DNA of 64,000 bases from an uncultured Candidatus Saccharibacteria bacterium (GTDB taxonomy: Bacteria; Patescibacteriota; Saccharimonadia; CAILAD01; BJGX01), in NCBI GenBank assembly GCA_964552475.1, contig CAZKFZ010000001.1, positions 35,347 through 99,346 of the forward strand, in the 5' to 3' direction. Each line of letters begins with the position of its first letter. The stretch's first letter is position 1. Below, one piece after another: positions 10,998 to 32,120 of this stretch. The position numbers were made by a program, and so were the translations under genes. Below the pieces are notes generated by a model, which had not been told where the DNA came from, searched no databases, and saw nothing but the letters and a program-made list of their open reading frames with translations.

Positions 10998-11000
10998 TTA

Positions 11001-11969
11001 GTGGTAGCCAAGCCTAGCATTGATATTTTTGAGAATTCTCTCCGCTCAAGAGGTAATTTACTAGATATATTACTTCTTGATCGTACTACTAAGAAAAATA
11101 TAATTTGGGCTACAGACTCATATAACAAAGCTCAAAAGAATAATAGTTTTTCACCGCGTAGGCAAATAAAACCAGAGCTTGTTACGGGCAAAGTTTATGG
11201 CCAACTTATACAACCAAGAGCTGCAAAACCACTATACGAGCAGCGTAAGCGTACCAAAGACAAAGCGGAGGTTTTCACACCATTACGTGTAGTAGACCAA
11301 ATGAACAAGCATATAGACTGGTCTAGTAGTTATCCACCAAACAAAGATAACTGGCAGGACTATGTGAAACAGCTAAAACTAGAGATAACATGTGGCGAAG
11401 CACCTTTTATGGTAGGAAGGTACAACCCAGATGCTCACACAGGTAAACTGATACAACTATACACTAAGACTGGCAAGCCAAACCGAGTAGGGTTTTTAGA
11501 TCGCAAGCTATACATAGTTTCAAAATATTGCAACAAGCATAGTCAGTGGGTACATTGGGCAAAAGAAGCATTTAAGGCAAGTTATGGATATGAGTGGCAG
11601 GGTGACAATATACTTATAGCTCGTGAGAATTTACTATATACATTTATAGATTTCTATGTAGATAAATTCAAACGTCGCCCATCGTTAAAATTACAAGAAG
11701 AGATTGCAGAGATAATAAGCTGGAATATATTTCAAATGGATGGGCTAAAATATGTAGTACCTATGAGCTGTAAACACATCAATAGAGTAATCCCCGGCGA
11801 GCTTACACTTTTTGGTGAGACACCAGACAGAGTAGAGAAAGACGAATGCGATGGATGTAAGTTACAAAAACCATACAAGCATAACGGTAAGTATGTAAAA
11901 ATAATGGATTGGGAGAAAAATACCACCATAAAGTTCGTTGATCTAATAACACAAAACGACGGCTTGTAA
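11001..11969 (+). CDS. hypothetical Cys-cluster protein translationally coupled to the helicase-MTase gene
   Basis: 322 aa. GTG start 3 nt after the upstream stop. Contains an AEVFTPLRVVDQM motif reminiscent of MTase motif X but no NPPY. C-terminal CKH...C-x2-C cluster (MSCKHIN...DECDGCK). Confidence 0.55.
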   Translation: MVAKPSIDIFENSLRSRGNLLDILLLDRTTKKNIIWATDSYNKAQKNNSFSPRRQIKPELVTGKVYGQLIQPRAAKPLYEQRKRTKDKAEVFTPLRVVDQMNKHIDWSSSYPPNKDNWQDYVKQLKLEITCGEAPFMVGRYNPDAHTGKLIQLYTKTGKPNRVGFLDRKLYIVSKYCNKHSQWVHWAKEAFKASYGYEWQGDNILIARENLLYTFIDFYVDKFKRRPSLKLQEEIAEIISWNIFQMDGLKYVVPMSCKHINRVIPGELTLFGETPDRVEKDECDGCKLQKPYKHNGKYVKIMDWEKNTTIKFVDLITQNDGL

Positions 11970-12052
11970 CCATCGTTTTGCTGGGAGGTGTAGCTTTTCT
12001 AGCGCTTTAGTACTGTCACTACCTAGCTCTCTATAAACCAGCTACTTTTCCA

Positions 12053-12277
12053 TTAACCTCTTGGTGGGAACGGGTCGTTACCGTAAGTCTCACGGTTTTC
12101 AATTGTACCATCTAATTTTTGAATAACTAATTCACTAGGTTGATTTTGTTTAGCAGTAAGTCTGCCTGTTTGCACAACTTTTATCTTTAGTGTATCCACG
12201 AAAAGTACCTTTTTATTATGTGTAAGCGCCCAGCTAGTTTTTGCTGGAGACACATAGTAGTATTTTCTCATCCACAC
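12053..12277 (-). CDS. hypothetical small protein
   Basis: 74-aa ORF, the only one in this gap, with no recognisable motif. The real start may be the second Met (MRKYYYV). Confidence 0.35.
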   Translation of the reverse strand: MWMRKYYYVSPAKTSWALTHNKKVLFVDTLKIKVVQTGRLTAKQNQPSELVIQKLDGTIENRETYGNDPFPPRG

Positions 12278-12531
12278 TCCTTTCTATTACAGAACAATGT
12301 TCACCCTCCCTGTAATTTACAAGGGTAGACTACGAAAGTCTAACGATATTATAGCAAAAATATACCGAACAATAAAATCATACACATCTTTAAATTTTAA
12401 GATCAGTTTTATGTAAATTGAATATAAAAATTACATAATCAACAGGGAATAGGTATAATATATTGTGTGGATATATAATATACAGAGTAATTTATATAAT
12501 TTAATATAAAGATTAAAAAAGGAATAAATAA

Positions 12532-12912
12532 ATGGCAAAGTATGTAGATGGGTTTGTACTAGTTGTGCCCAAAGGTAAAGAAACTGAGTACCAAGAAATG
12601 GCTAAAATGGGCAGAGACTCGTGGATGAAACACGGTGCTTTGCAATACTTTGAGTGCCGAGGTGACGACCTAGTACAACATGAGCAAGGCGACGAAAAAT
12701 CGCGAGATTTTAAAGAAATGGCTGGTGCGGGAGCCGACGAAAACGTATGGTTCTCTTTTATAGTTTTTAAATCTAAAGAGCATAGAGACGAAGTAAACAA
12801 AAAAGTAATGCAAGAGATGGGCGAGGAGTACAAAGACCAAACTGATTTTGAAATGCCCAACGACATGAAAAAAATGGCCTATGGCGGTTTTGAGGTTGTA
12901 GTAGAGGGTTAG
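12532..12912 (+). CDS. DUF1428 (YbaA-like) protein
   Basis: 126 aa. MAKYVDGFVLVVPKGKE...HGALQYFECRGDDL...KKMAYGGFEVVVEG matches the YbaA/DUF1428 fold end to end. AGGAA RBS. Confidence 0.8.
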   Translation: MAKYVDGFVLVVPKGKETEYQEMAKMGRDSWMKHGALQYFECRGDDLVQHEQGDEKSRDFKEMAGAGADENVWFSFIVFKSKEHRDEVNKKVMQEMGEEYKDQTDFEMPNDMKKMAYGGFEVVVEG

Positions 12913-12962
12913 TAAAAGAATCAATGATTGAATGTTCGTAGTATGTTTGGTATATTATATTT

Positions 12963-13790
12963 ATGAGCAACGAAACTAGCATAGCATTGTTTAATGACAA
13001 AGAAGTGCGCAAAACTCTGCATAAAAATGAGTGGTGGTTTTGTATTATTGACGTGGTAGAAATACTTACAGATTCTGTTGATGCTGGTGCATATTGGCGC
13101 AAACTTAAGCAAAGGCTTTTACAAGAGGGTGGCGACCAAACCGTGACAAATTGTCACAGTTTGAAAATGACAGCAAAAGACGGCAAACAACGCAACTTTG
13201 ATGCCATGAAGACAGAGGATATACTACGACTTATACAATCTATACCTTCACCCAAGGCCGAGCCGTTTAAGCGTTGGCTAGCACAAGTAGGTAGTGAGAG
13301 AATTGCTGAGATAGATAACCCCGAGCTTGCCACCGAACGTATGCGCAAGCTATATGAAGCCAAGGGGTACTCGAAAGGCTGGATAGATAAGCGTGTGCGA
13401 GGCATCAATGTACGAGACGAGCTAACAAGCGAATGGAAACAACGAGGCGTAAAAGAGGGCAGAGAGTACGCTATACTTACCAACGATATTTCAAAAGCAA
13501 CATTTGGTATGACAGCGACAGAATATAAAAAACATAAGAGCTTACAACTCGAGAATTTGCGTGATCATATGACAGATCTTGAGCTTATATTTACTATGCT
13601 TGGTGAAGCTGCCACTACAGAAATAGCGCGCAATAAAGATGCACAAGGTTTTTGGCAAAATAAAATGGCAGCTAATCAAGGCGGAAAGATAGCGGGTGAC
13701 GCGAGGGGCAAGCTAGAAAAAGAAAGTGGCAAAAGAGTTGTGAGTAAAGGTAACTACTTAGATAACAACGGCGCAAATAAACTCAAATAA
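12963..13790 (+). CDS. DinD/BRO-N-family protein (DNA-damage-inducible protein D-like)
   Basis: 275 aa. KRWLAQVGSERIAEIDNPELATERMRKLYEAKGYSKGWIDKRVRGI and the C-terminal ARNKDAQGFWQNKMAANQGGKIAGDARGKLEKESGKRVV resemble E. coli DinD and phage Bro-N/antirepressor proteins. Confidence 0.65.
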   Translation: MSNETSIALFNDKEVRKTLHKNEWWFCIIDVVEILTDSVDAGAYWRKLKQRLLQEGGDQTVTNCHSLKMTAKDGKQRNFDAMKTEDILRLIQSIPSPKAEPFKRWLAQVGSERIAEIDNPELATERMRKLYEAKGYSKGWIDKRVRGINVRDELTSEWKQRGVKEGREYAILTNDISKATFGMTATEYKKHKSLQLENLRDHMTDLELIFTMLGEAATTEIARNKDAQGFWQNKMAANQGGKIAGDARGKLEKESGKRVVSKGNYLDNNGANKLK

Positions 13791-15896: not shown

Positions 15897-16442
15897 TTAG
15901 TAAACTATTTTGAGCTGGCTGTTTGGCTCAATAACTGTAGTAAGGGCGTTGGGCGACTCTACACCATTAATATAAAAGCGCAATTGCTGTGCTGAGTTGG
16001 TACAAAAGGTTTGCTTGGTACCGGTAACTATACATTTGGTATCTACACTCATAGGTAGAGTAGTAAACAGATCACCCCAGGTAATGTTAGGTTTGGTAAC
16101 TACCACCTGTACCTGGCTAGAGCCTTCGGGCGGTATGTATACATCGGCCGATTTGTTGTGATAACGCGGGTCGGTAAATATGCGGGTTTCACCATTTATA
16201 ATAATTTGAAAAGTAGCTGTATATGGGGTAAATACCGGTACAGTCGTAGGTTGGCTATTGTTTTGGCTGGTGCTGGCTGGTGCAGTTGTTTTAGCTCTTG
16301 TGAGATACAAGTAGCCAGCAAGAACTATAATAATAGAAACAAAGATAGCAAAAGCTACTAAATACTTATTACTACGTCTTTTTTTTGCATTTTTCATACG
16401 GCTAGTATAGCAACAATTGGTAGTACATAAAACTATTGACAT
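15897..16442 (-). CDS. secreted/membrane-anchored hypothetical protein
   Basis: 181 aa. Basic N-terminus, one TM (LVAFAIFVSIIIVLAGYLYL), then a T/P/S-rich linker and a beta-rich C-terminal domain. Confidence 0.5.
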   Translation of the reverse strand: MSIVLCTTNCCYTSRMKNAKKRRSNKYLVAFAIFVSIIIVLAGYLYLTRAKTTAPASTSQNNSQPTTVPVFTPYTATFQIIINGETRIFTDPRYHNKSADVYIPPEGSSQVQVVVTKPNITWGDLFTTLPMSVDTKCIVTGTKQTFCTNSAQQLRFYINGVESPNALTTVIEPNSQLKIVY

Positions 16443-16464
16443 TTACGCTAGTTTGTGCTAGTAT
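16436..16464 (+). promoter_or_regulatory. sigma70-like promoter for the GC-rich gene at 16505
   Basis: TTGACA, 17 nt spacer, TAGTAT. A GAGAGA RBS sits 5 nt before the ATG at 16505. Confidence 0.5.
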
Positions 16465-16504
16465 AGTTAGGCTCAAGTAAATCTACTGAAAGAGAGATGA
16501 GCAC

Positions 16505-16921
16505 ATGAACATCGACATCAGTGATCTCGACCGTGCAGCCGTGTTGGCCGCGCTCTTCAATGGGGCACGGGCTCAGGGCCTCGGTTTCATCGCTCACCAG
16601 GACGGCGACATGACCGTCGAGCAGGCTCAGGCCATCCTCAACTCCGGTACGACCTACTTCGACTACCTGCAGGGTAGGGTGATGAAGGTCGACCTCTCCG
16701 GCGACTCGTTCGACCCCTGGGGCTACGACCGCGACAACGGCGAGGGCGCTGCCCACTCCGTCATCCGCTCGCTGCGGCAGACCGGCTCGGCCTCCAACGT
16801 GGAGACCAGGCATCTGCACCAGCACGGCATGGCCGCCGCAGCCGACGAGCTTCGGGAGCACTACGGCGACGATCTCGCCGACGAGCTGGTCGGCGCCCGC
16901 CGACCGGTCAGCGAAAGCTGA
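16505..16921 (+). CDS. hypothetical protein with high-GC (actinobacterial-like) codon usage
   Basis: 138-aa ORF with strong G/C third-position bias (atc gac ctc gcc ...), in sharp contrast to the ~40% GC neighbours. The translation is protein-like. The antisense ORF 16448-16960 is judged a high-GC artefact. Confidence 0.6.
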   Translation: MNIDISDLDRAAVLAALFNGARAQGLGFIAHQDGDMTVEQAQAILNSGTTYFDYLQGRVMKVDLSGDSFDPWGYDRDNGEGAAHSVIRSLRQTGSASNVETRHLHQHGMAAAADELREHYGDDLADELVGARRPVSES

Positions 16922-17095
16922 CAAAAAGGTTTGCCAGTTCCTTTCAAAAACTGGCTCCACCTAAGTGTTTAATGATATTAAATTGAAAATTTGGGTGGCA
17001 AAAGGTTCCTTGCTGAGTATTAATCTAATGCTAAGTAAGGAGCTTTTAGCAAATAAAAGCTTTGTACCTGTCCCCAAAAAAAAGGAAAATGCAAA

Positions 17096-17539
17096 ATGAG
17101 TCGACGCTCACTCATGCAGTTGTCGTTTGTGGTGTTTACTACCGCGCTCAGCGTGGCGTACTACCACATCTACATGTCGCTCGACACCTTGGCGCGTCAA
17201 GCGCTTATCGAGATGGGCGACACCACCTACTACCCGCCAGAGAATCAGCTCTGGGTAGCTACCAAGATCGTCGCAATCTCAGCTACCTTCGTGGGTGCTG
17301 GCATGGTGGCACTGATGTTTTTTGCCTACCTTCTCATTATGGCAATGTGCAACCAAGAGATCAACTCAGCCATTCGTGACTGCGAAGAACTTGGTGGCAC
17401 GCTCACCTCAGAACCCATTAAGGTGTGCCACTGGTACAGCTACGACTGGTCGCTAACCGGTGAGTTGCCCAGCGGCGAGGAGTACATTCGCTACAACGGC
17501 GACAACTTCTTCGAGGTTTTTCCGTTCGTACACCACTAG
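17096..17539 (+). CDS. hypothetical membrane protein (GC-rich)
   Basis: 147 aa. Three hydrophobic helices then a Cys-containing soluble tail. AGGAAA RBS. Elevated GC. Confidence 0.55.
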   Translation: MSRRSLMQLSFVVFTTALSVAYYHIYMSLDTLARQALIEMGDTTYYPPENQLWVATKIVAISATFVGAGMVALMFFAYLLIMAMCNQEINSAIRDCEELGGTLTSEPIKVCHWYSYDWSLTGELPSGEEYIRYNGDNFFEVFPFVHH

Positions 17540-17557
17540 GGCCAAGTAGGCCCGCAG

Positions 17558-17589
17558 GGCCCCAACAATTGTTGGGGCCCTTTACCTAT
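17558..17589. repeat. copy 1 of a 22-nt perfect palindrome plus conserved tail (terminator-like repeat element)
   Basis: GGCCCCAACAATTGTTGGGGCC followed by CTTTACCTAT. The same 32-nt element with one substitution recurs at 19803-19834. It can fold as a 9-bp stem, AATT loop and T-rich tail. Confidence 0.8.
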
Positions 17590-17597
17590 AAAACATC

Positions 17598-17626
17598 TTG
17601 CAAATTTATAAATTTACTAGTATAAT
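17598..17626 (+). promoter_or_regulatory. sigma70-like promoter for the flotillin-like gene
   Basis: TTGCAA, 17 nt spacer, TATAAT, about 45 nt upstream of the ATG at 17672. Confidence 0.55.
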
Positions 17627-17671
17627 ACTGCATCGGAATGTATTTCCTAAACGAAAGGTCCAACAAAGGAC

Positions 17672-19765
17672 ATGGTACCTTCCAATACATATGTACTAGG
17701 CGCATCTGAGGGACTCCCAATTGTGCCTATTGTGCTTGGAGTTGTTGCATTTATTGCGCTACTTATCGTGGCGCGATTTATCGTAAAGAGCTTCAATATG
17801 ATTGGCCCAGATGAGTTTGGGTTGGTAGAGAAGCGCCTGGGCAAGAAGTTGCCAGAGGGTCAGTTAATCGCTTTTAACGGCGAGGCCGGCTATCAGGCGG
17901 AGTTGCTTCAGCCAGGCTTACGCTTCAAGCTCTGGCCTCTGTATTGGGTCACTAAGTACCCTCTGGTGCAGGTTGCTGCCGGTGAGATTGGTCTTGTTGT
18001 GGCCCAGGCCGGTGGTGATTTACCCCCAGGCTTCAAGTCTGGTGTCTACAAAGACGAGTTTGGTCTTTTTGCCAACCTAGAAACGTTTATTCAGAACGGT
18101 GGACAGCGTGGCGTGCAGAGACAGGTTTTGCCTCCGGGTACAACCCAGCAGATGCACCCTATCGCATTCATTGTACGGACTCGGTCTGAGACTTTCGGCA
18201 CGGTTTTGTCGGAGTCGGCTGAGGAAGTGCTGAATAGAATTCCGCCCGAAAAATTGGTGCCGTTCACTATTGAACCCCAGGGTCATACCGACGTAGTGGG
18301 TGTGGTTACTACACTCGAAGGCGCTCCGGCCAAAGGCATCGCCAGTCGGCTTGGTAACTTCGACGATGTAGTAGAAGCTGAGGCAGCAGATACGGCGGCT
18401 AACACCATCATCACAACGGTGCTTGCGCCCAAAAACAACCTGCACAACAACTACCAGGATTTCCAGGCTTTTCTGGATGCTGGTGGGTGCATTGGCCTCC
18501 AGCACGATCCACTACTTTACGGGCAGTACATGCTAAACCCCTACCTGGTTTCAGTTGAGCTTCGCGAGATGCTCGTTGTGCGCCAGGGCGAGGTTGCTGT
18601 GGTTAAGGCCTACGTAGGCCTACCCACCGAAGATACGTCTGGCGAGGAGTTTAAGTTTGGCTCTATTGTAGAGCCAGGTCATCAGGGTATTTGGTCGGAG
18701 CCACTGCGCACCGGCAAGTACACCCTTAACCCACGCATTTACGAGGCCGAGATTGTACCGACCTCTATCCTTACACTCAACTGGGCCAATGCAACCAGCG
18801 AGGCTCACAACCTCGATGGTTCGTTGTCGTCGATTCACGCCAAGAGCAAGGAAGCGTTCGATTTTAGCATTGATCTGCAGGTGCAGATTCACGTGCCCGA
18901 CACTCGAGCACCCAAGGTTATTAGCATGGTTGGTACCATGCAGAACCTGGTTAATGAGGTTCTGCAGTCGGCGGTAGGCAACTACTTCCGTAATACACTG
19001 CAGTCTCTAGGCGCCGCTGAGTTCATTCAGAAGCGTGACGAAGTCCAGGCCCAGGCCGAGAACTACGTCATGGGTTACCTCTCGCGTTATGAGGTAGAGG
19101 TGCGCGGTGTTTACATCCAGGATGTGGTCTTCCCACCAGAGTTGGTAGAGGTGCTTACAACGCGAGAAATCGCAGCACAGCAGACTCAAACCTACCAGAG
19201 CCAGATGGTAGCCGAGCAGGCTCGAATTGACCTGGAGAACCAAAAGGGCGTGGCCGATGCCCAGGCCGATTTGGCAAGGGCTCGGGTTTCGGTGGATGTT
19301 AACGATGCCGAGGCTCAGGCTGCGGTTAAGCGTGCTGAAGGTGAGGCTGCGGTCGTGCGTCAACGCGGTCAGGCTGCTGCCGATGTTACAAAGCTGACAG
19401 GTGAGGCTGAGGCTGCTGCCACACAAGCTACTGGTTTGGCCGAGGCCAAGGCCACCGAGGCCAAGGGTCTCGCGGTCGCCAAGGGCTTCGATGCTCAGCA
19501 GCGGGCTATTGGCCGTCAGCAGACTGGTTTGGTTGCTGCACTCGAGCAGATTGGCAAGGGTGGAGTGGTACTCACTCCGCAGATTCAGGTTGGTGGTGAC
19601 TCAGTAGGCTCTGGTCTACTAAACACCCTAATGACCTTAGGTGTCGATAAGATGGTGAACGACAACGGCGAGGGTTCGCCCGAGCTGGAGGCCGTTGATG
19701 CGTCGTCCGATGCTGAAGCCTCGGCTGAGCCGAGCGATGAAGCACCGTCAACCAACGAAGACTAA
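17672..19765 (+). CDS. SPFH/band-7 flotillin-family protein
   Basis: 697 aa. N-terminal TM, SPFH core (KSFNMIGPDEFGLVEKRLGK...), long C-terminal A/E/Q-rich repeats (AEAQAAVKRAEGEAAVVRQRGQAAAD...) typical of flotillin. Acidic tail. Elevated GC. Confidence 0.75.
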   Translation: MVPSNTYVLGASEGLPIVPIVLGVVAFIALLIVARFIVKSFNMIGPDEFGLVEKRLGKKLPEGQLIAFNGEAGYQAELLQPGLRFKLWPLYWVTKYPLVQVAAGEIGLVVAQAGGDLPPGFKSGVYKDEFGLFANLETFIQNGGQRGVQRQVLPPGTTQQMHPIAFIVRTRSETFGTVLSESAEEVLNRIPPEKLVPFTIEPQGHTDVVGVVTTLEGAPAKGIASRLGNFDDVVEAEAADTAANTIITTVLAPKNNLHNNYQDFQAFLDAGGCIGLQHDPLLYGQYMLNPYLVSVELREMLVVRQGEVAVVKAYVGLPTEDTSGEEFKFGSIVEPGHQGIWSEPLRTGKYTLNPRIYEAEIVPTSILTLNWANATSEAHNLDGSLSSIHAKSKEAFDFSIDLQVQIHVPDTRAPKVISMVGTMQNLVNEVLQSAVGNYFRNTLQSLGAAEFIQKRDEVQAQAENYVMGYLSRYEVEVRGVYIQDVVFPPELVEVLTTREIAAQQTQTYQSQMVAEQARIDLENQKGVADAQADLARARVSVDVNDAEAQAAVKRAEGEAAVVRQRGQAAADVTKLTGEAEAAATQATGLAEAKATEAKGLAVAKGFDAQQRAIGRQQTGLVAALEQIGKGGVVLTPQIQVGGDSVGSGLLNTLMTLGVDKMVNDNGEGSPELEAVDASSDAEASAEPSDEAPSTNED

Positions 19766-19802
19766 TTCGTACCTAGTACATGTAGAATAAATTGTACCCA
19801 AA

Positions 19803-19834
19803 GGCCCCAACAATTGTTGGGGCCTTTTACCTAT
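19803..19834. repeat. copy 2 of the 22-nt perfect palindrome plus tail; also the likely terminator of the flotillin gene
   Basis: GGCCCCAACAATTGTTGGGGCC followed by TTTTACCTAT, 38 nt after the stop at 19765. Confidence 0.8.
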
Positions 19835-19972
19835 TTAAAATCCCAAAACACAAATATAACTATAATCTACTAGGTATAATGTAAGTTTTATAAAATCAAG
19901 ACTAAACTACCCTGGTCTATTTATAAGTAGTATAATATACATCAATACTAAAACAGTTAAGCTTTGTAAAAA

Positions 19973-20641
19973 ATGTATAATCTAATACCTAAAGAATTTC
20001 TAAGAATAATTTACTCGCAACACAGTAAAGAGTTGGGTAAAAATCTTGCTGGTATAGTGTTGTGCGGTAGTGCAGCCAACCATAGCCTAGATCGTGACTC
20101 CGATATAGACTATGTTGTGATAGTTAAAAATTTAGATAAAAATAGCTACAAAGTCTTGGCTGATTTACGGCTTGCACTAGAAAAGCAACTTGGTTTGCAG
20201 TGCAGTAATACTGTTGTTGAGTATCACTCTATTAGAGATTTAAAAAACAACTATATGTACTTAGACGGTAAAGCAGTACAAGCCTGTATTGACTCAAACG
20301 CACAAAATACTTTACTAAATAAGAGTTATGCCATACCTAAGCTAGATTCTAGTACGGTCCGAAAGTTTTCGGCTCTAGATTTTCATAAGCTAAAAGCTCT
20401 TACTATTAAACAACTAGTAAGAATGTCTAATCCAGCTAGCTACAGCGAGAGACGTAAAGTAATAAAATTAGCTTATATTTTATGTAAAGTTTATGCACAG
20501 GCTAGTACAACTACTCAAGAAAAAGAGTATATGGATAGCATTAGAGACTCACTAATGTCAATAAAAAACAATATTCGCAAATATAATGATAGTCAGCTTT
20601 TTGAGGTTATTGCTAGAATAATTTCTCTAAATCTTCACTAG
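19973..20641 (+). CDS. minimal nucleotidyltransferase (Pol-beta superfamily; KNTase/Lnu-like)
   Basis: 222 aa. LCGSAANHSLDRDSDIDYVVIV is the G[GS]-x(9-13)-D-x-[DE] nucleotidyltransferase signature. Helical C-terminal domain. Confidence 0.6.
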   Translation: MYNLIPKEFLRIIYSQHSKELGKNLAGIVLCGSAANHSLDRDSDIDYVVIVKNLDKNSYKVLADLRLALEKQLGLQCSNTVVEYHSIRDLKNNYMYLDGKAVQACIDSNAQNTLLNKSYAIPKLDSSTVRKFSALDFHKLKALTIKQLVRMSNPASYSERRKVIKLAYILCKVYAQASTTTQEKEYMDSIRDSLMSIKNNIRKYNDSQLFEVIARIISLNLH

Positions 20642-21698
20642 GCTCTATAAAAAATTTTAGTTTTTCCCATAATGACATTTGTGTATTTGCAAACAAATGA
20701 GAAAAAACAAGAGATAGTTTTTGGTCTTCAATACTCATCTTGCTTAGTATAAAAGTTGTAAGCAGGCGAAACGAAATCGCTAGACTGGCTTGATCTAAGT
20801 ATGTTTTATGGTTTGCAACACTTAGTTTATTTATGTAATACTCAACAAATTGCAAAACTAGTTCTTGCCTGCTTGAATCTATATTTACTTTAATATTATT
20901 ACTATATATAGAAAAACATTTTGGTTTGGTAGCTAGTTGTTGAGATGTTTCTTGGCTAGCCCATTTGGCATATTTTGGGCCAAAATAATTGCCGGCAAAT
21001 AAAGTATGCCATAAAAATGTAGCTATGTCGGTAGCAATATGATTAAACCCAGCACCCTCAAAATCAACTATCGCGCCGCTGGTAAAAATATTGCGCTCGT
21101 GTAAGTCTCCTTGAGAGGGAACACAAATACCCAAACTAAAATCCTGAACTCCAGTGGCGATGTTTGTAAAAAAATCCGACTCCAATTTGGTTTTATAATT
21201 GCCAATACTAGGTAGATAGTTATGAATATTGCTACTAAGTAAACTTTTTAACTCAGGCTTAAAAAGTCTAGGCAATCTATCTAAATAAAATAGCTGAGTA
21301 CCACCATTAGAGTTGGTTTTAGACCAATTGGTGTTGGCGATAGTAGCTAGCTCTTGCCACAGTGAACTTAAGTCTGGAGTTTGGCCTAGCGAGAGGGCAT
21401 CGCCAACAGTAGTGCTATTGGCGCCTACGTTTTGGTAGTGAATTTCTAAACCATCTTTGTTTATTGAGAGACGGTTTGGGATGTTTTTATAGTAATGGCT
21501 AATAAAATCGTAGCCATTTAGCTCTAAATTGAACTGCTTGGCAGAATCAAAACGTTTTGTCACCGTGGGCTGGTGACTGTTATTAAATTTGTTAGGCTTT
21601 ACACGAAGCATAATAAATAGTATAATATCGCATAATTTAACAATTATCAATATGGCTAAGACAATAATCGAAATTTCCGGTCCAGATTTTGTAGGCAA
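20613..21698 (-). CDS. APH/choline-kinase-family phosphotransferase
   Basis: Brenner motif GDLHERNIF (HGDLHxxN) and IVDFEGAGFNHIATDIA (DFE...D). The first Met gives 361 aa and overlaps the divergent kinase gene. The internal Met at 21611 (MLRVKP) gives 333 aa with no overlap and is the more likely start. Confidence 0.6.
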   Translation of the reverse strand: MPTKSGPEISIIVLAILIIVKLCDIILFIMLRVKPNKFNNSHQPTVTKRFDSAKQFNLELNGYDFISHYYKNIPNRLSINKDGLEIHYQNVGANSTTVGDALSLGQTPDLSSLWQELATIANTNWSKTNSNGGTQLFYLDRLPRLFKPELKSLLSSNIHNYLPSIGNYKTKLESDFFTNIATGVQDFSLGICVPSQGDLHERNIFTSGAIVDFEGAGFNHIATDIATFLWHTLFAGNYFGPKYAKWASQETSQQLATKPKCFSIYSNNIKVNIDSSRQELVLQFVEYYINKLSVANHKTYLDQASLAISFRLLTTFILSKMSIEDQKLSLVFSHLFANTQMSLWEKLKFFIEPSEDLEKLF

Positions 21699-22872
21699 AT
21701 CTACACAGGCCGAATTACTTACCTATGAGACCCAAGCTTTGCATGTACATAACTTCGGCTCTTTAGCTGGCTATTCTAAAAAAATGCCAGATAGTTTGAG
21801 CCCGCAAGAATTTTTTAAATGGTGGTTTGAAAAGAGTAGTTTTAATGAGCTTTGCAGTGCGCTAATAGATGCCTACAATAACAGGCTGGCTACCATAGAG
21901 AAAGCAGAAAATCTAGATATTGCAGTAGTAGAGAGAGGGCGAGATATGTTGCGAGCGCAACTAGTTGCAACCTTTTTAACCCGTGAAAACAAGAACACAA
22001 AAGACACAGTAGCACTAGAAAAAATTACCACAGCAGTTGAAAATAAGATCGCAAAATATATGGTAGATGTGCCTCGTGACAGTAGAGTAGAGATATTTTT
22101 AAAACCTTGCAAACCGTGGCAGAGTGAAATAGAGTGTTACCACAAAGTTTTACGATCGGCTCGTAGTGAAGGATCGAGTTTTAGCGGGAGCCAAAACAAG
22201 CTATATGCTAACTATCAAAAAAACTTAAGTACTGTTTTAGAGCTTCAAACAGAGAGTAATTCATCTATATTAGTTGATTGCCCGGCTGTTGATGTGCAAA
22301 ACGTTATTCGCGCACAAGTAAGGAAACATAATATACCACCGCTTTTTGCTAATAATCCGGTAATTGTTGGTTTGGCAGGCTTAAGCGAAACTGGCAAGGG
22401 CGCAGTAGCTCAGTTTTTGCAAGATAACTTTGCCTTTACCAGGCTTAAGATTGGTTTTTTTAACGAACACTCTCGCGACCATCAAAAAGCCTACGCCAAA
22501 CCATCAAAAACCGCGCTTACAATTACCCATTTTTTAGCAACCAATAGGCATATACAAAGAGCGACACTAGAGAGTTTGCACGGCACCGATATTAGCATAG
22601 CTCTTAAGCTAATATTAGGTGAACGTTGGGTGCCAACTCTACTGACGTCGCCAGATACTTTAAGAGTCCAGCGAAATAATAGCCAATTTACCAATACAGA
22701 CCCTACTAAGCTCAGACGTGATCAACAAAATAAAGACAAAACTAAGCTCAAGCAAGGATTGGCCGAGTATCAAGAGCATGCCGATATTGTAGTAGACAAC
22801 TCTGGTACAATAAAACAGACAGCTAACAAAATAGTAAAACATATAGGGCAAAAACGTGATAGAACCAAATAA
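21652..22872 (+). CDS. two-domain P-loop kinase (thymidylate-kinase-like N-terminal domain)
   Basis: IIEISGPDFVGKSTQAELL is a Walker A in Tmk-like context, with a VVERGRD lid-like segment. The second half has another Gly-rich loop (GLAGLSETGKGA). The ORF track starts at 21589; the start at 21652 (MAKTII) is preferred because it removes the overlap with the divergent gene. Confidence 0.5.
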   Translation: MAKTIIEISGPDFVGKSTQAELLTYETQALHVHNFGSLAGYSKKMPDSLSPQEFFKWWFEKSSFNELCSALIDAYNNRLATIEKAENLDIAVVERGRDMLRAQLVATFLTRENKNTKDTVALEKITTAVENKIAKYMVDVPRDSRVEIFLKPCKPWQSEIECYHKVLRSARSEGSSFSGSQNKLYANYQKNLSTVLELQTESNSSILVDCPAVDVQNVIRAQVRKHNIPPLFANNPVIVGLAGLSETGKGAVAQFLQDNFAFTRLKIGFFNEHSRDHQKAYAKPSKTALTITHFLATNRHIQRATLESLHGTDISIALKLILGERWVPTLLTSPDTLRVQRNNSQFTNTDPTKLRRDQQNKDKTKLKQGLAEYQEHADIVVDNSGTIKQTANKIVKHIGQKRDRTK

Positions 22873-23377
22873 CGAACCAAGAGAATTAGAATCGGGTGTT
22901 CAGCCACCTCCAGAGCCACTACTTAGATTGCAGGAAAAGTATGCCTTTATGCCCAGCCCTATTACTGAGAGACCCAAAAGATGCCGAGCGATTATATATA
23001 ATCAAACAGGTGATAAGGTTCTGGGTATAAATCGCGTCCGTCCTGGTAGAGACCCTTATGTGGTGTACCCTGGCGGCGGCTTAGAAGAATCAGACCAAAA
23101 AGCTGTTGATGGTATTTGGCGAGAGTTACAAGAAGAGCTTGGGATAAGTAGAGATGATATTATCCTAACTGGCTCAGTTATTGAGCTAGAAGGTGAGTTT
23201 TTTTACTTGGGCTATGAACGCCATAAAATAGTAAATCTAACTATTGGTGGTCCTGAGGCCGAGCGTGACACGGCGGTTTCGGGTAGTTATGAGCCAGCTT
23301 GGCACAACACCACCTCTCTAATAGTGGATAATATGTTTCCGTCTGAAATAAGCGAGAGAATTGAAGAAACTGCTTAA
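22856..23377 (+). CDS. Nudix hydrolase
   Basis: 173 aa. PGGGLEESDQKAVDGIWRELQEELGI is a complete Nudix box (Gx5Ex7REUxEExGU). Confidence 0.75.
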   Translation: MIEPNNEPRELESGVQPPPEPLLRLQEKYAFMPSPITERPKRCRAIIYNQTGDKVLGINRVRPGRDPYVVYPGGGLEESDQKAVDGIWRELQEELGISRDDIILTGSVIELEGEFFYLGYERHKIVNLTIGGPEAERDTAVSGSYEPAWHNTTSLIVDNMFPSEISERIEETA

Positions 23378-24329: not shown

Positions 24330-24980
24330 TTAGCGCAAACTGCGCGACAACAATCGAGTAAGTAAAGGCATAGCAAAGAACAACATAAATGCTGCCTGAC
24401 CAATAAATATTGATCCCCCCACAACTAGTAGCGAGGTAACTACTGCGGCGGTGTTGCGGGCTTTGTTGTAGGCAATATCTTTATCGGTAAGGCTTTCGTC
24501 AAAACTAAAGTCGGTAGAGAGTGCATAGCGCCATTGCCAAGCACTCACAATCGTAATTAGTGCATAATTAATAGGCAGTAGCATTCTACCCAGCACCAAA
24601 CCACTGTAATTACCGGCTATGCTTGCTGTAAGAGGCATAAAAACTACCAACAGTAACCTGAAAGTATTAATAGCGACTAAGTGCATATCTACTTGTTTTA
24701 TTTTTTCAAACTGGCGCAAATGTACAGACCAGGCACTACCAAGCATTAAAAAACTCACCACAAAACTTACAAGCATTGTGGAGTTATTGGTAATGTTTTG
24801 CCAGAGCTGTGTGCTGGTGTTGGCGTTGCCAAATTCACCAAATTTGAGGCCCAAAACCAAGAGAGTCATAGCAATTGCAAATACACCGTCTGATAGTGCC
24901 TCTACTCTGCGTGTAGAATAAAATTGATTAGAGTTGGTGTCTTTTTTTACCATTAGTATTATTGTAACAATGTTTGGCAA
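24330..24980 (-). CDS. TMEM175/DUF1211-family membrane protein (putative K+ channel)
   Basis: 216 aa. RRVEALSDGVFAIAMTLLVLGLK matches the RxxxFSDGVFAIAxTLLV signature helix of the family, with 5-6 further TM segments. Confidence 0.65.
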   Translation of the reverse strand: MPNIVTIILMVKKDTNSNQFYSTRRVEALSDGVFAIAMTLLVLGLKFGEFGNANTSTQLWQNITNNSTMLVSFVVSFLMLGSAWSVHLRQFEKIKQVDMHLVAINTFRLLLVVFMPLTASIAGNYSGLVLGRMLLPINYALITIVSAWQWRYALSTDFSFDESLTDKDIAYNKARNTAAVVTSLLVVGGSIFIGQAAFMLFFAMPLLTRLLSRSLR

Positions 24981-25077: not shown

Positions 25078-25548
25078 GTGGACTATACCACAATATCAAG
25101 AAAAAGAACCTTACAGCAAAAGATGCGACGCATTCATTGGGGCATTAGCCGAGCCAAGAACAAAATTTTTGCAAACCTAAACGGATATTTTTGGATACCT
25201 TGTCCTATTTGTGGTACCCCTTTTGGTGGGCACGAATGGCAGAATGGTCAATCTATGAAACTCAAAGAAGGTAGCCAGACAAATCAGGGAATTTGCCCAC
25301 CATGTTCGTGGGAGTTGGGCGAAGAGTCTGCCCAGATTTGCGATGAGCTTGGGCACATGTTGGTGTCGTCTTGGAGCCCAGCCCAAAACCCAAGAGTTGA
25401 TGATGACGGCATTATGCATATTGTAATTGAATTTGATACGAGTAGAACGCCAGACCGAGTAATGTGTAGTCGTTGTTTTCGCTATTTTGACCCAGTTACC
25501 AATCAACCCTTACCTAGAAGTCTAAAAATCACTAGTTACAACAAGTAG
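25078..25548 (+). CDS. Cys-rich (zinc-ribbon-like) hypothetical protein
   Basis: 156 aa. CPICG...H, CPPCSWELGEE and CSRCFRY pairs. Terminator immediately downstream. Confidence 0.45.
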   Translation: MDYTTISRKRTLQQKMRRIHWGISRAKNKIFANLNGYFWIPCPICGTPFGGHEWQNGQSMKLKEGSQTNQGICPPCSWELGEESAQICDELGHMLVSSWSPAQNPRVDDDGIMHIVIEFDTSRTPDRVMCSRCFRYFDPVTNQPLPRSLKITSYNK

Positions 25549-26158: not shown

Positions 26159-27154
26159 GTGGAACTTGTAGACGTACTAGATGAAAGTGGCAAGCCCACT
26201 GGCCAAAAAGCAACCATAGACGAGGTGTGTGACCAAGGTTATTGGCATAGCTCGGTTCACGCCATTATTATTACCAGCGATAATAAAATTGTGGCGCAAA
26301 AACGATCGCGTGAAATTATAATGAACCCCAATCTTATAGAATTATCAGCCGGAGGGGTAGTAAGCGCCGGTGAAAAGCCCGATCAAGCTATTAGGCGAGA
26401 AATAAAAGAGGAACTTGGTATCGATGTATTGGCTAGCGAAGTAATACCAATAAATATAAGAACCTATAATAAACACTACCCCAGACTCAATAAAACTGCT
26501 AAAACATTTTTACACACCTATGTAATAAAATTACAAAAACCAATTGCTCACACCCATTTACAGTCTAGTGAGTCAGCCCAGATTTACTTTTTGACGTTAC
26601 GAAATACTAAAAGACTAGTCAAACTCCATCGTTTAGTAAGAGTAGGTAGAGTTACGCCCTTTTATACCTATTGGAACTTCTCGTTAAATGAAGCCATTAA
26701 ATATATTCACCCAATTGTGCATTTTGTGTGTCGCGGTAATACTTTTAGAAGCCGTTTGGCAGAAGCTTATTTTAATAAAGTAAAAAGTGAGCGAATTAAG
26801 GTAATATCTAGTGGAATACAGGCTAGTGAAAACCAAAATGGGCACATAAGCTACTTGGGTAAATATATACTTAAAAAGCATCATTATAAAAACTACAAAA
26901 AAAGCTGGACCCAAACTACTCAAGCAAACATTGATGCCTCTACGATAGTTATTTTTGTCTCACCTACGGTATTTACTGACGCTCAAGATATGTTCGATTT
27001 GAGCGCCACGAAGTATCAAGTGTGGAGTATACCAGACGTACGCCAAGGTGAATACGCAAATAGCGAGGCCAAGGCAGAGGAAGTGTATAAGATGTTGGTT
27101 GGTAATATTAATAAACTAAAAGATCAAAGAGAGTTTAAGCATTTTCTACTATAA
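26159..27154 (+). CDS. fusion protein: N-terminal Nudix hydrolase plus C-terminal low-molecular-weight phosphotyrosine-phosphatase/ArsC-like domain
   Basis: 331 aa. Nudix box AGGVVSAGEKPDQAIRREIKEELGI. The C-terminal domain carries the P-loop VCRGNTFRSRLAEAYF (C-x5-R, LMW-PTP CxGNxCRS-like) and a downstream SIPDV acid-loop candidate. Confidence 0.65.
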   Translation: MELVDVLDESGKPTGQKATIDEVCDQGYWHSSVHAIIITSDNKIVAQKRSREIIMNPNLIELSAGGVVSAGEKPDQAIRREIKEELGIDVLASEVIPINIRTYNKHYPRLNKTAKTFLHTYVIKLQKPIAHTHLQSSESAQIYFLTLRNTKRLVKLHRLVRVGRVTPFYTYWNFSLNEAIKYIHPIVHFVCRGNTFRSRLAEAYFNKVKSERIKVISSGIQASENQNGHISYLGKYILKKHHYKNYKKSWTQTTQANIDASTIVIFVSPTVFTDAQDMFDLSATKYQVWSIPDVRQGEYANSEAKAEEVYKMLVGNINKLKDQREFKHFLL

Positions 27155-30542: not shown

Positions 30543-32120
30543 ATGATTACACTAAGCAAATCTGAATATATAATGTATCTTAAGCATCCGGCGTGGTTGT
30601 GGCTAAAAAAACATGACAAAAAAATGTTGCCAGAAGTTGACGACAACCTACAGGCGCGTTTTGATGCCGGTAATTTGTTTGAAGAGTATGCCGAGAAACG
30701 TTTCAAAGATGTTTTACGAGTTGGTTTTAATGGCTATCAAGAATATTCGAGTATGCCCGAGCGTACCCAAAAGGCTCTCAAAGATGGCGCCAAAACACTA
30801 TCTCAAGGTAGATTTGAGGCTAATTTTGCTGGTGAGCAGATTACTTGTATTGTAGACATTGTTGAGTTGGTGGGGGATAAAACCTTCGATTTGTATGAGA
30901 TAAAATCTAGCACCAAAGTAAAGCCCGAACATATTGACGACCTGGCTTTTCAGGTAGTTGTGCTAGAGAGCGCCGGTTACAGCGTGAGAAATATTGGTGT
31001 AGTTTATTGCAATAACCAATATGTGCGTAGTGGCGCGCTAGATGAGCTCTCGCTGAGCGTAAAACAAGATGTAACTAGCAAGGTAGAACAAAAGCTTGAG
31101 TCTACCAAACGTAATATTGAGGCCGCACTAACGGTAGTTGGGGCTAGCGACATGCCAGACCCTACGCCTCGTCGCACCAAGATGGGGGCTATTAAAGACT
31201 GGTTAGAAATATATTTAGCCCTTAGACCCACTCAAGATAAATACTCTATTTACAATCTATGCTCGGCCGCGGCCGAACAATTGGGGCAACTAGAAGATTT
31301 GCATATTAGTAGTATTGCCGATATTCCAGATAATTTTGCTCTAAAACCCAAACAAAAAAGACAAGTAGAAGCTACCAAGCAAGCCAGCCCAATCGTAAAT
31401 ATTGCTAAAATTAAAAAATTTATAAATTCTTTGCAGTATCCATTGTACTTTTTAGACTACGAAACCCTCAGCTCTATCGTGCCGCCCTTTGATGGGCTCA
31501 AGCCGTTTGATCAACTACCCTTTCAGTACTCACTACACATTATACAAGAGCCAGGCGGCGATTTGTTGCACAAAGAGTTTTTGCATACACTCGCTACCAA
31601 CCCAGTACCAGAGCTGCTACAACAATTGCAAGCCGACATTGGTGAGTCTGGCACAGTTTTGGTATGGTGGGAGGGCTTTGAGAAGAGCTGTAATGAGCTA
31701 ATGGGTAAACTTATGCCCGAGCACCTTACTTTTTTAGAAGATGTTAATAGTCGAGTAATTGACTTAATGAAACCATTTAGTGAAGGTTACTATATAGATC
31801 GCGATTTTATGGGCTCGGCTAGTATCAAAAATGTTCTGCCAGTAATTGCGCCCGAACTAAGCTACAAAGACCTAGACATACAAGAGGGTGGCTCGGCCCA
31901 AAGACTATGGATGCAAGCCGTTTACGAAGATAAGTTCGACCAATCAGAGAAAGCAAAGCTAATGGAGAGCTTACGGCAGTATTGCGAGCTAGACACCTAC
32001 GCAATGGTACGAATTTTTGAGTTTTTAGTTGCCTTAGATGTTGGTGGTACTAAACCTAGAGGTGACTCTAGTGTAGGTCAAGTTACTAATCAAGATTTTG
32101 AACAACAACAGCTCTTTTAG
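30543..32120 (+). CDS. DUF2779-family protein (PD-(D/E)xK nuclease-like N-terminus plus C-terminal domain)
   Basis: 525 aa. LSKSEYIMYLKHPAWLWL start, DIVELVGDKTFDLYEIKSS (D...EIK nuclease-like motif), and C-terminal YPLYFLDYETLSSIVPPFDGLKPFDQLPFQYSLHI, all characteristic of DUF2779. Confidence 0.5.
   Translation: MITLSKSEYIMYLKHPAWLWLKKHDKKMLPEVDDNLQARFDAGNLFEEYAEKRFKDVLRVGFNGYQEYSSMPERTQKALKDGAKTLSQGRFEANFAGEQITCIVDIVELVGDKTFDLYEIKSSTKVKPEHIDDLAFQVVVLESAGYSVRNIGVVYCNNQYVRSGALDELSLSVKQDVTSKVEQKLESTKRNIEAALTVVGASDMPDPTPRRTKMGAIKDWLEIYLALRPTQDKYSIYNLCSAAAEQLGQLEDLHISSIADIPDNFALKPKQKRQVEATKQASPIVNIAKIKKFINSLQYPLYFLDYETLSSIVPPFDGLKPFDQLPFQYSLHIIQEPGGDLLHKEFLHTLATNPVPELLQQLQADIGESGTVLVWWEGFEKSCNELMGKLMPEHLTFLEDVNSRVIDLMKPFSEGYYIDRDFMGSASIKNVLPVIAPELSYKDLDIQEGGSAQRLWMQAVYEDKFDQSEKAKLMESLRQYCELDTYAMVRIFEFLVALDVGGTKPRGDSSVGQVTNQDFEQQQLF

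Follow-up and report, generated by a model that had tools for sequence, protein, structure and literature searches.

The window analysed here, a stretch of 64,000 nucleotides from an uncultured Candidatus Saccharibacteria bacterium, carries a cassette of four adjacent genes that, to judge from their sequences, form a single selected multi-enzyme module: they are co-inherited, partly fused, translationally coupled, and they have kept their catalytic residues. By sequence all components of the cassette can be placed in superfamilies handling nucleotides or phosphorylated small molecules, and the cassette is no recognisable resistance pair, toxin-antitoxin pair or catalogued defence system. We tentatively suggest, giving it somewhat less than an even chance, that the module is an accessory metabolic unit acting on a nucleoside, a nucleotide or a ribose-type small molecule.

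Organization and conservation of the cassette

The first gene (positions 19973..20641, + strand; open reading frame (ORF) and Pfam NTP_transf_2) encodes a Pol-beta-superfamily nucleotidyltransferase (NTase) of 222 aa. The gene for a protein-kinase-like (ELK) small-molecule kinase of 332 aa (20613..21611, − strand) converges on it, and the 3' ends overlap by 29 nt (20613..20641). A two-domain P-loop kinase of 406 aa follows (21652..22872, + strand); for both kinases the assignment uses the ORF and homologue alignment. The last gene encodes a MutT-type Nudix hydrolase of 173 aa (22856..23377, + strand; ORF and Pfam NUDIX), and the 3' end of the P-loop gene overlaps it by 17 nt, an arrangement that is translational coupling. 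The positions of the four ORFs given in an earlier note, made from the sequence alone, agree with the ORF list, and its fold calls were borne out: a minimal NTase of Pol-beta type, a protein-kinase-like kinase, a two-domain P-loop protein with a Tmk-like half, and a Nudix protein.

The ELK kinase and P-loop genes diverge from a 40-bp intergenic region (21612..21651) with two back-to-back promoter-like sites that reach into the flanking coding sequences, TTTACA-17-TATAAT on the + strand (21598-21626; 11/12 matches) and TTGATA-17-TATTAT on the − strand (21650-21622; 10/12 matches). The earlier note described this pair as divergent with overlapping starts; the divergence holds, but the overlap is an artefact of choosing the longest ORFs. 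Those starts (21589 and 21698), which would give the kinase what looks like a transmembrane N-terminus, were ruled out by public gene calls, homologue alignments and the promoter-like sites. In public assemblies the kinase starts at 21611 (332 aa) and the P-loop protein at 21652 (406 aa), and the homologues align end to end.

The same gene order, with the NTase and kinase genes convergent, the kinase and P-loop genes divergent and the Nudix gene last, is shared by the window, L004, L008, L005/L017, L010, L012/L013, L014, L015, L016 and L018 (L numbers are loci). This four-gene synteny amounts to about 10 independent loci with protein identity down to ~30%, and on these sequences the arrangement exceeds chance. 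The convergent 3' overlap of NTase and kinase genes recurs in all 10 loci examined (4-119 nt), the divergent gap measures 34-77 nt across 10 loci, and a TAGTATAAT-like box is found again in several of them. For the four window genes compared with L004 and L008, dN/dS is 0.09-0.17, values that are approximate because dS is near saturation. The sequence comparisons thus indicate that all four genes are functional and under purifying selection, and they evolve faster than the neighbouring Band_7 and TMEM175 genes.

The families are rare. The kinase family comprises 23 clusters among 5.8 billion proteins, the P-loop family 19 clusters and the NTase family 31 representatives among 1.84 billion; the three are equally rare and co-distributed. 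A profile scan that used one genome for each of 185,579 GTDB species found the kinase in only 2 species, both named 'uncultured Candidatus Saccharibacteria bacterium'. In one of them, L008, synteny with the window covers the Band_7 and TMEM175 genes as well as the cassette, which places the window in a Saccharibacteria genome. Outside Saccharibacteria, carriers were found only among Streptomyces-like bacteria, with fragments of a fused form on Streptomyces megaplasmids. We take the module to be Saccharibacteria-specific and, as a fused version, shared by Streptomyces-like actinobacteria.

Two types of gene fusion occur. P0028, P0030 and P0032 (P numbers are proteins) join the P-loop protein to the Nudix protein; the P-loop protein of Streptomyces-like relatives with high GC (64-73%) instead carries an NTase domain at its C-terminus. 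In the latter type the GS...WSDLDL motif is present in P0041 and P0042, and the fusion of L027 matches Pfam NTP_transf_2 at residues 430-475 with 23.7 bits. The L027 fusion gene overlaps (GTGA) a gene for a distant ELK-like kinase, which likewise lacks a Gly-rich loop, and the operon of L025 that encodes fusion P0042 also includes a distant ELK-family kinase (hhalign probability 92%). The two independent types of fusion indicate that the components work together. L027 (3455-11760) is an IMG/VR contig in which the fusion and the ELK-like kinase lie 3 kb from genes for phage major capsid E and head-decoration proteins. The fusion and kinase genes of L025 have DUF4254, phosphoribosyltransferase, GT9 and TylF-like methyltransferase genes as neighbours, and in L026 a Mom-family gene adjoins the fusion.

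Reduced and decayed versions were also found. L006/L007/L020 have only a Nudix gene followed by the kinase gene, and L011 lacks the kinase and has an NTase-family member between two Nudix genes, followed by the P-loop gene. Decayed copies of the Nudix-kinase subtype (L009 6683-8697, L022, L023 and L024) carry a serine-recombinase-like gene inserted in the 5' part of the kinase gene; the kinase is truncated, in two cases with frameshifts, and a convergent Nudix gene adjoins it.

Properties of the four proteins

The ELK kinase has the catalytic loop S-Q-G-D-L-H-E-R-N and a DFE motif. Of the two motifs that the earlier note had assigned, HGDLHxxN and DFE, the latter is thus present, whereas the former has Gln in place of His before the GD. 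Invariant in the family are K19, E30, [Q/H]GDxHxxN (D169, N174), D183-F-E185, G103-G104-T105 and NYFGPxYAxW. Sequence models place the protein poorly: it scores 14.8-15.3 bits against Pfam choline kinase PF01633 (cut-off 29), stays below threshold for Pfam APH PF01636, and has no match among the NCBIfam models, including those for antimicrobial resistance (AMR). Its best sequence match in the PDB is Plasmodium choline kinase (ChoK), with E 1e-3 for the single sequence and 5e-6 for the profile, in the catalytic segment only.

The AlphaFold2 (AF2) model is confident (pLDDT 90.9) and has an N-lobe of three strands plus helix alphaC, and methylthioribose (MTR) kinases as nearest structures. These are followed by LxmK (17.4), PsiK (16.5), the choline-kinase family (10.7-14.2) and the APHs (9.8-12.9), with maltokinase, N-acetylhexosamine kinase and glucosamine kinase further down the ranking. 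Foldseek, used independently, placed 15 MTR-kinase chains on top (E ~1e-6), about 1000-fold ahead of the next match.

The MTR kinase MtnK is defined by a GXGNXN G-loop between beta1 and beta2, an HGD loop, a Mg-binding DXE motif and a twin-Arg RR motif that binds ribose O2/O3 (PMC2194712). The window kinase resembles MtnK in overall fold, in a [Q/H/N/L]GD catalytic loop with the invariant D169, and in the DXE motif, represented by D183-F-E185. It differs in sequence (~10% identity), in lacking both the GXGNXN loop and space for one, in having no conserved RR motif and only single invariant arginines (R248 and R282), and in an invariant Asn (N174) at the fifth position behind the catalytic Asp, as found in APH, ChoK and PKA. 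Neither GxGNxN nor GxGxxG occurs in any of the 21 kinase family members. In all 21 the invariant beta3 Lys comes after just 5-18 residues, which means that the beta1/Gly-loop/beta2 hairpin is wholly missing. The failed G-loop and RR tests rule out true orthology to MtnK, and the genomic partners are unrelated to MtnA/MtnB. MtnK and the related 5-deoxyribose kinase, which serve in the salvage of methionine and 5'-deoxyadenosine, are nevertheless among the closest known systems. From sequence and model the kinase is predicted to be a new ELK family, in which an MtnK-like overall shape is combined with ChoK/APH-like Mg ligation and with GGT and NYFGPxYAxW as invariant motifs peculiar to it. Almost every protein-kinase-like enzyme holds ATP with a Gly-rich loop, and the absence of this loop makes the kinase structurally interesting in itself.

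The P-loop protein consists of two NMP-kinase-fold domains (NMP, nucleoside monophosphate) according to its AF2 model (pLDDT 89.8), and profile searches concur. The N-domain (~residues 1-225) is Tmk-like with the sequence SGxDxxGKSTQ, and the C-domain (~residues 235-406) is AdkA/Cmk/CoaE-like with GLSExGKS and ADIVVDNS. In profile and structure searches the domains match Tmk and AdkA/Cmk/UMPK/CoaE, respectively. The Walker A lysines of both domains and several arginines are invariant, which makes both domains look active. The Pfam and NCBIfam thresholds for Tmk, Cmk and CoaE are not reached, no Tmk family appears at E<=1, and the CoaE-type model TIGR00152 gives 15 (cut-off 65.6). The N-domain shares P-loop type and fold with thymidylate kinase (Tmk), but an invariant WW(F) motif, long helical inserts and a constant connection to a second kinase domain distinguish the protein from Tmk and phage dNMP kinases. 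For the C-domain every score against the UPF0200/AdkA-like kinase SSO1041, cytidylate kinase and dephospho-CoA kinase falls below the family threshold.

The NTase exceeds the cut-off of Pfam NTP_transf_2 (24.3 bits; cut-off 21) and shows the superfamily pattern hG[GS]x9-13Dh[DE]h. Its catalytic core lies in the N-terminal half (G32-S33, D44xD46 and D98), and the GS...DxD motif reported earlier is there as G32/S33, D44 and D46. All 31 sequences of the family have G32, D44 and D46, and 16 of them match NTP_transf_2 at E<=1. In the helical C-terminal half, K100, Q103, K172 and Q176 are invariant and K146 and R150 nearly so. This half contains neither a conserved His nor a conserved Rx4-6H motif, and it had no detectable relative when the profile was compared with the PDB. 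In that search only the first ~90 residues aligned, with the MNT-type protein 9xbd_E (1e-8), ANT(3'') 6sxj (2e-5) and ANT(4') (~0.01). Scores with NCBIfam models of the ANT/Lnu type are 12-24 bits (cut-offs 193-560), and the alignments cover no more than the first ~60-80 residues; ANT_9 gives 23.9 bits (cut-off 340) and the ANT(3'') models 12-17 bits (cut-offs 193-500), with residues 17-83 aligned. The protein thus shares with ANT(3'')(9), ANT(4')/KNTase and MntA the Pol-beta core hG[GS]...DxD and, with the ANTs, the division into core and helical C-terminal half, whereas the alignment stops after the first ~60-90 residues and the ~31 representatives form a closed family. A toxin-antitoxin system of the MNT-HEPN class (MntA/HepT, type VII) was rejected on the sub-threshold score of the MntA model NF047752 (21.4 bits; cut-off 60) and the missing HEPN partner, the genes flanking the NTase being the Band_7 gene and the ELK kinase gene.

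The Nudix protein scores 30.7 bits against Pfam PF00293 (NUDIX; cut-off 21.1), and its profile finds MutT and NTP pyrophosphohydrolases as best PDB matches. Where the Nudix consensus is GX5EX7REUXEEXGU, the box of the window reads RELQEELGI; G73-G75, R89, E90, E93 and E94 are invariant, and the E at the GX5E position is variable, with Q in the window and V in L005.

Accessory genes and genomic surroundings

An adenosine-deaminase-family gene is the most constant accessory gene. It stands directly upstream of the NTase gene in six independent, more distant lineages, with an S-adenosylmethionine (SAM) methyltransferase gene in between in two of these. The protein is divergent, with 136-148 bits against TIGR01430 (cut-off 216.6). 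The HxH, HAGE, H and TDDP motifs are kept, but the first reads HxHLTG (L005 11583-12497; L012 2478-3416; L010; L014; L015). In classical adenosine deaminase an Asp binds the ribose 5'-OH, and the Thr of HxHLTG sits at that place. The exchange of Asp for Thr hints at a substrate that may be modified or phosphorylated at the 5' position. A 3-dehydroquinate (DHQ)-synthase-like gene is located 3' of the Nudix gene in two lineages, and a fragment of it occurs in L011; the protein is also divergent, scoring 188-194 bits against the aroB model (cut-off 305). Phosphoribosyltransferase genes were found in two loci. Glycosyltransferase (GT) and methyltransferase genes occur near the cassette in L010 (GT2), L025 (GT9 and the TylF-like methyltransferase), L014 (GT4) and L012/L016 (methyltransferase). 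At L011 446-2184, the most distant low-GC locus, the Nudix-NTase-Nudix-P-loop genes come after ORFs with radical-SAM and SPASM domains and the DHQ-synthase-like fragment; the gene for the radical-SAM protein is apparently split. A dedicated search detected no homologues of the deaminase, the DHQ-synthase-like protein, the methyltransferase or the phosphoribosyltransferase elsewhere in the window.

The cassette lies directly right of a GC island, as noted earlier: GC content drops from 0.49-0.53 over 16-20 kb to 0.33 over 20-21 kb. The island (window 16000-20000; 0.49-0.53 against ~0.40) consists mainly of a gene for a 697-aa SPFH/Band_7 protein (17672-19765), and a clean hairpin terminator comes after it (19803 to 19824 or 19828). 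The Band_7 protein is 87% identical in L004 and L008 and is therefore more conserved than the adjoining cassette. In the clade of the window, L004 and L008 this island holds the position upstream of the NTase gene that is taken by the adenosine-deaminase gene in more distant relatives. Further left, at 6783-13790, lies a variable, defence-like region with a type IIG/ISP-like restriction-modification (RM) enzyme of 1404 aa, composed of a ResIII helicase and an Eco57I-type methylase, a partner ORF of 322 aa and a protein bearing a Bro-N domain.

On the other side of the cassette are genes for a TMEM175-family potassium-channel homologue (24330-24980, − strand; 83.5 bits; 95% identical in L004 and L008), a zinc-ribbon protein (25078-25548, + strand; DZR_2, below threshold), and a 331-aa fusion of NUDIX with a low-molecular-weight phosphatase/ArsC-like domain (26159-27154, + strand; Pfam NUDIX 44 bits, LMWPc 31.8 bits). 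The latter is a second Nudix protein, encoded 3 kb from the cassette and kept in L004. A DUF2779 protein follows at 30543-32120 (+ strand; 127.8 bits). Scans of the window for tRNA genes and Rfam families gave no features, and there is no canonical tmk in the 64 kb, which is uninformative.

Possible functions

The reading that we favour, an accessory unit for nucleoside, nucleotide or ribose chemistry, would assign consecutive steps to the enzymes. The MtnK-like ELK kinase could phosphorylate a hydroxyl group on a substrate with a ribose moiety, be it a nucleoside or a ribose substituted at position 5. Further phosphates would then come from the Tmk-like and AdkA/Cmk-like domains, which would convert NMP to the diphosphate (NDP) and perhaps to the triphosphate (NTP). 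The Pol-beta NTase may use the resulting or a standard NTP and move NMP onto an acceptor hydroxyl. The MutT-type Nudix enzyme, fused or coupled to the kinases, would cut NTP or NDP-X back to NMP, thereby setting the direction or cleaning the pool. In an ancestral, fuller form the adenosine-deaminase-family enzyme would act first, on an adenine-containing substrate, and the window would hold a reduced four-gene version without the deaminase and DHQ-synthase-like genes. Such chemistry is supported by the likeness to MTR kinases found with two methods, the matches of the P-loop domains, the MutT-like Nudix protein, the upstream deaminase and the phosphoribosyltransferases.

A comparable logic is known from nucleotide pools. 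ADAL1 catalyzes a step in the sanitation of N6-methyl-dATP, and phage T4 converts its nucleotide pool with a dCTPase and a dNMP kinase. In relatives the cassette resembles the former system in that a MutT-type pyrophosphohydrolase and an ADA-family deaminase, here with NMP kinases, would act on one nucleotide pool, and the latter in combining a pyrophosphatase with a dNMP kinase. MTH1 is the Nudix enzyme acting in the sanitation of N6-methyl-(d)ATP (PMC7152754). The likeness concerns only the logic: the window has no deaminase, and neither system has anything that corresponds to the NTase or ELK kinase.

Several considerations weigh against this assignment. All family assignments are at the superfamily level and the substrate is a proposal. 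A ribose substrate is suggested only by analogy, because the kinase fails two MtnK motifs and has no G-loop. The NMP-kinase fold also covers shikimate, gluconate and dephospho-CoA kinases, and we know of no Pol-beta NTase in a comparable metabolic pathway. A Nudix enzyme and an NMP kinase in series would run a futile cycle unless their specificities differ. The non-core neighbours are heterogeneous (DHQ-synthase-like, methyltransferase, GT2/GT9/GT4, radical SAM and Mom-like), and some point to sugar activation or DNA modification. The patchy distribution, the pseudogenised copies and the prophage-adjacent relative would also fit a conflict system. The CoaE-like C-domain led us to consider salvage of CoA, by a kinase, a PPAT-like NTase, a CoaE-like domain and a CoA-Nudix; this leaves the Tmk-like domain and the deaminase unexplained, no CoA-Nudix motif was seen, and the route is only remotely conceivable.

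Sugar or cyclitol activation for salvage, following the logic of AmgK/MurU or NahK, is in our view unlikely. The ELK kinase would phosphorylate the anomeric hydroxyl of a sugar, the NTase would make the NDP-sugar from the sugar-1-phosphate, the P-loop domains would recycle to NTP the NMP or NDP that glycosyltransferases release, the Nudix enzyme would hydrolyse excess NDP-sugar, and the DHQ-synthase-like enzyme would supply or consume a sugar phosphate. This agrees with the anomeric sugar kinases among the best structural relatives of the kinase (MTR kinase and, lower, maltokinase, N-acetylhexosamine kinase and glucosamine kinase), with the linkage of a DHQ-synthase-like sugar-phosphate cyclase in three lineages, and with the glycosyltransferase and methyltransferase genes nearby in L010, L025, L014 and L012/L016. 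Like AmgK/MurU, NahK/GlmU and LicA/LicC, the cassette has an ELK-fold small-molecule kinase gene beside a nucleotidyltransferase gene. However, the NTases of these pairs are Rossmann-like sugar- or choline-phosphate nucleotidylyltransferases without P-loop or Nudix partners, whereas that of the window is of the Pol-beta/MNT/ANT type, and all sugar-1-phosphate nucleotidylyltransferases known to us have another fold. Moreover, the glycosyltransferases come from differing families, are not conserved and are missing in the window, and the adenosine-deaminase partner would be unexplained. A conflict system, be it anti-phage defence, counter-defence or toxin-antitoxin-like, seems quite unlikely. It would change or deplete nucleotides, or attach nucleotidyl or phosphate groups to a target when infection occurs, and it may have been exchanged among actinobacterial hosts, their phages and Saccharibacteria epibionts. 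The very patchy distribution, the recombinase-inactivated copies, the adjoining RM/Bro-N variable region, a type I RM system and a Shedu-like gene within 10 kb in L004, the capsid genes 3 kb from the actinobacterial fusion and the Mom-family gene of L026 could be read in this way, as could a weak match of the NTase to the PADLOC candidate PDC-S09 (26.7 bits). Yet in PADLOC-DB 2.0 the kinase and the P-loop protein had no matches and those of the NTase and Nudix protein were marginal (Nudix E 0.005 to PDC-S07), and with no significant match a known defence system was rejected. There is also no HEPN or other toxin partner, no conserved Rx4-6H in the C-terminal half of the NTase and no recognisable sensor domain, and the L005 and L012 cassettes lie among housekeeping genes (ArgRS, PriA and RecJ), co-transcribed with the deaminase. 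Relatives of the kinase are absent from IMG/VR and relatives of the actinobacterial P-loop-NTase fusion from 50,697 phage genomes; on these grounds a phage origin was dismissed, the one distant P-loop relative in an actinobacterial provirus notwithstanding.

Antibiotic inactivation, which the earlier note had raised from the pairing of an ANT-like NTase with an APH-like kinase, fared worst, and we consider it very unlikely. The two enzymes would modify an aminoglycoside, lincosamide or nucleoside antibiotic of the actinobacterial host, and detoxification of analogue nucleotides, a sensible use of both enzymes, would fall to the Nudix enzyme and, in the ancestral form, to the deaminase. Saccharibacteria live on actinobacteria, and the other carriers found are only Streptomyces-like; the N-terminus of the NTase aligns with ANT(3'')/(9) and ANT(4'), and the kinase shares with APH/ChoK the catalytic Asn and the DFE motif. 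However, profile placement of the NTase and kinase reached none of the ANT, Lnu, MntA, APH or ChoK thresholds, the ANT models remained far below their cut-offs with the generic catalytic core alone aligned, no NCBIfam/AMR model matched the kinase, and APHs ranked structurally well below MTR kinases. Membership in an ANT/APH resistance pair is thereby ruled out by the sub-threshold Pfam/NCBIfam scores and the MTR-kinase-first ranking. The fusions and synteny tie both enzymes to nucleotide enzymes, and to our knowledge an obligatory tie to two NMP-kinase-fold domains is without precedent in resistance genes. The component tested, the actinobacterial fusion, had no relatives on resistance-type plasmids, only the fragments on Streptomyces megaplasmids. 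The evidence agrees better with the other suggestion of that note, an accessory pathway that modifies nucleotides or cofactors. As outcomes that would speak against its proposals it had listed a HEPN partner and kinases matching core enzymes; neither a HEPN partner nor a protein above a core-enzyme family threshold was found.

Although the folds themselves are known, there appears to be no earlier description of the families, the fusions, the kinase without Gly-rich loop or the module as a unit. The proteins are unnamed in the source databases, and literature searches on this combination of genes and on these enzymes in Saccharibacteria turned up no relevant paper. A practical warning is that motif evidence alone is insufficient for annotating such genes as aminoglycoside-resistance determinants. 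A more far-reaching view, which we regard as doubtful, is that of a multi-enzyme system, common to Streptomyces-like actinobacteria and Saccharibacteria epibionts, that makes or destroys a non-canonical nucleotide or conjugate with the aid of the loop-less kinase variant. If true, a modified adenine or ribose nucleotide could serve, e.g., as a signal, as a precursor for DNA or RNA modification, or as a weapon in the conflict between host, epibiont and phage. That Streptomyces-like bacteria are the sole other carriers found suggests gene flow between the host phylum and the epibiont. Saccharibacteria have minimal genomes and obtain nucleotides and cofactors from their actinobacterial hosts. In such a host-dependent genome a conserved four-enzyme module that seems to be under purifying selection likely marks a specific metabolic dependency or interaction.

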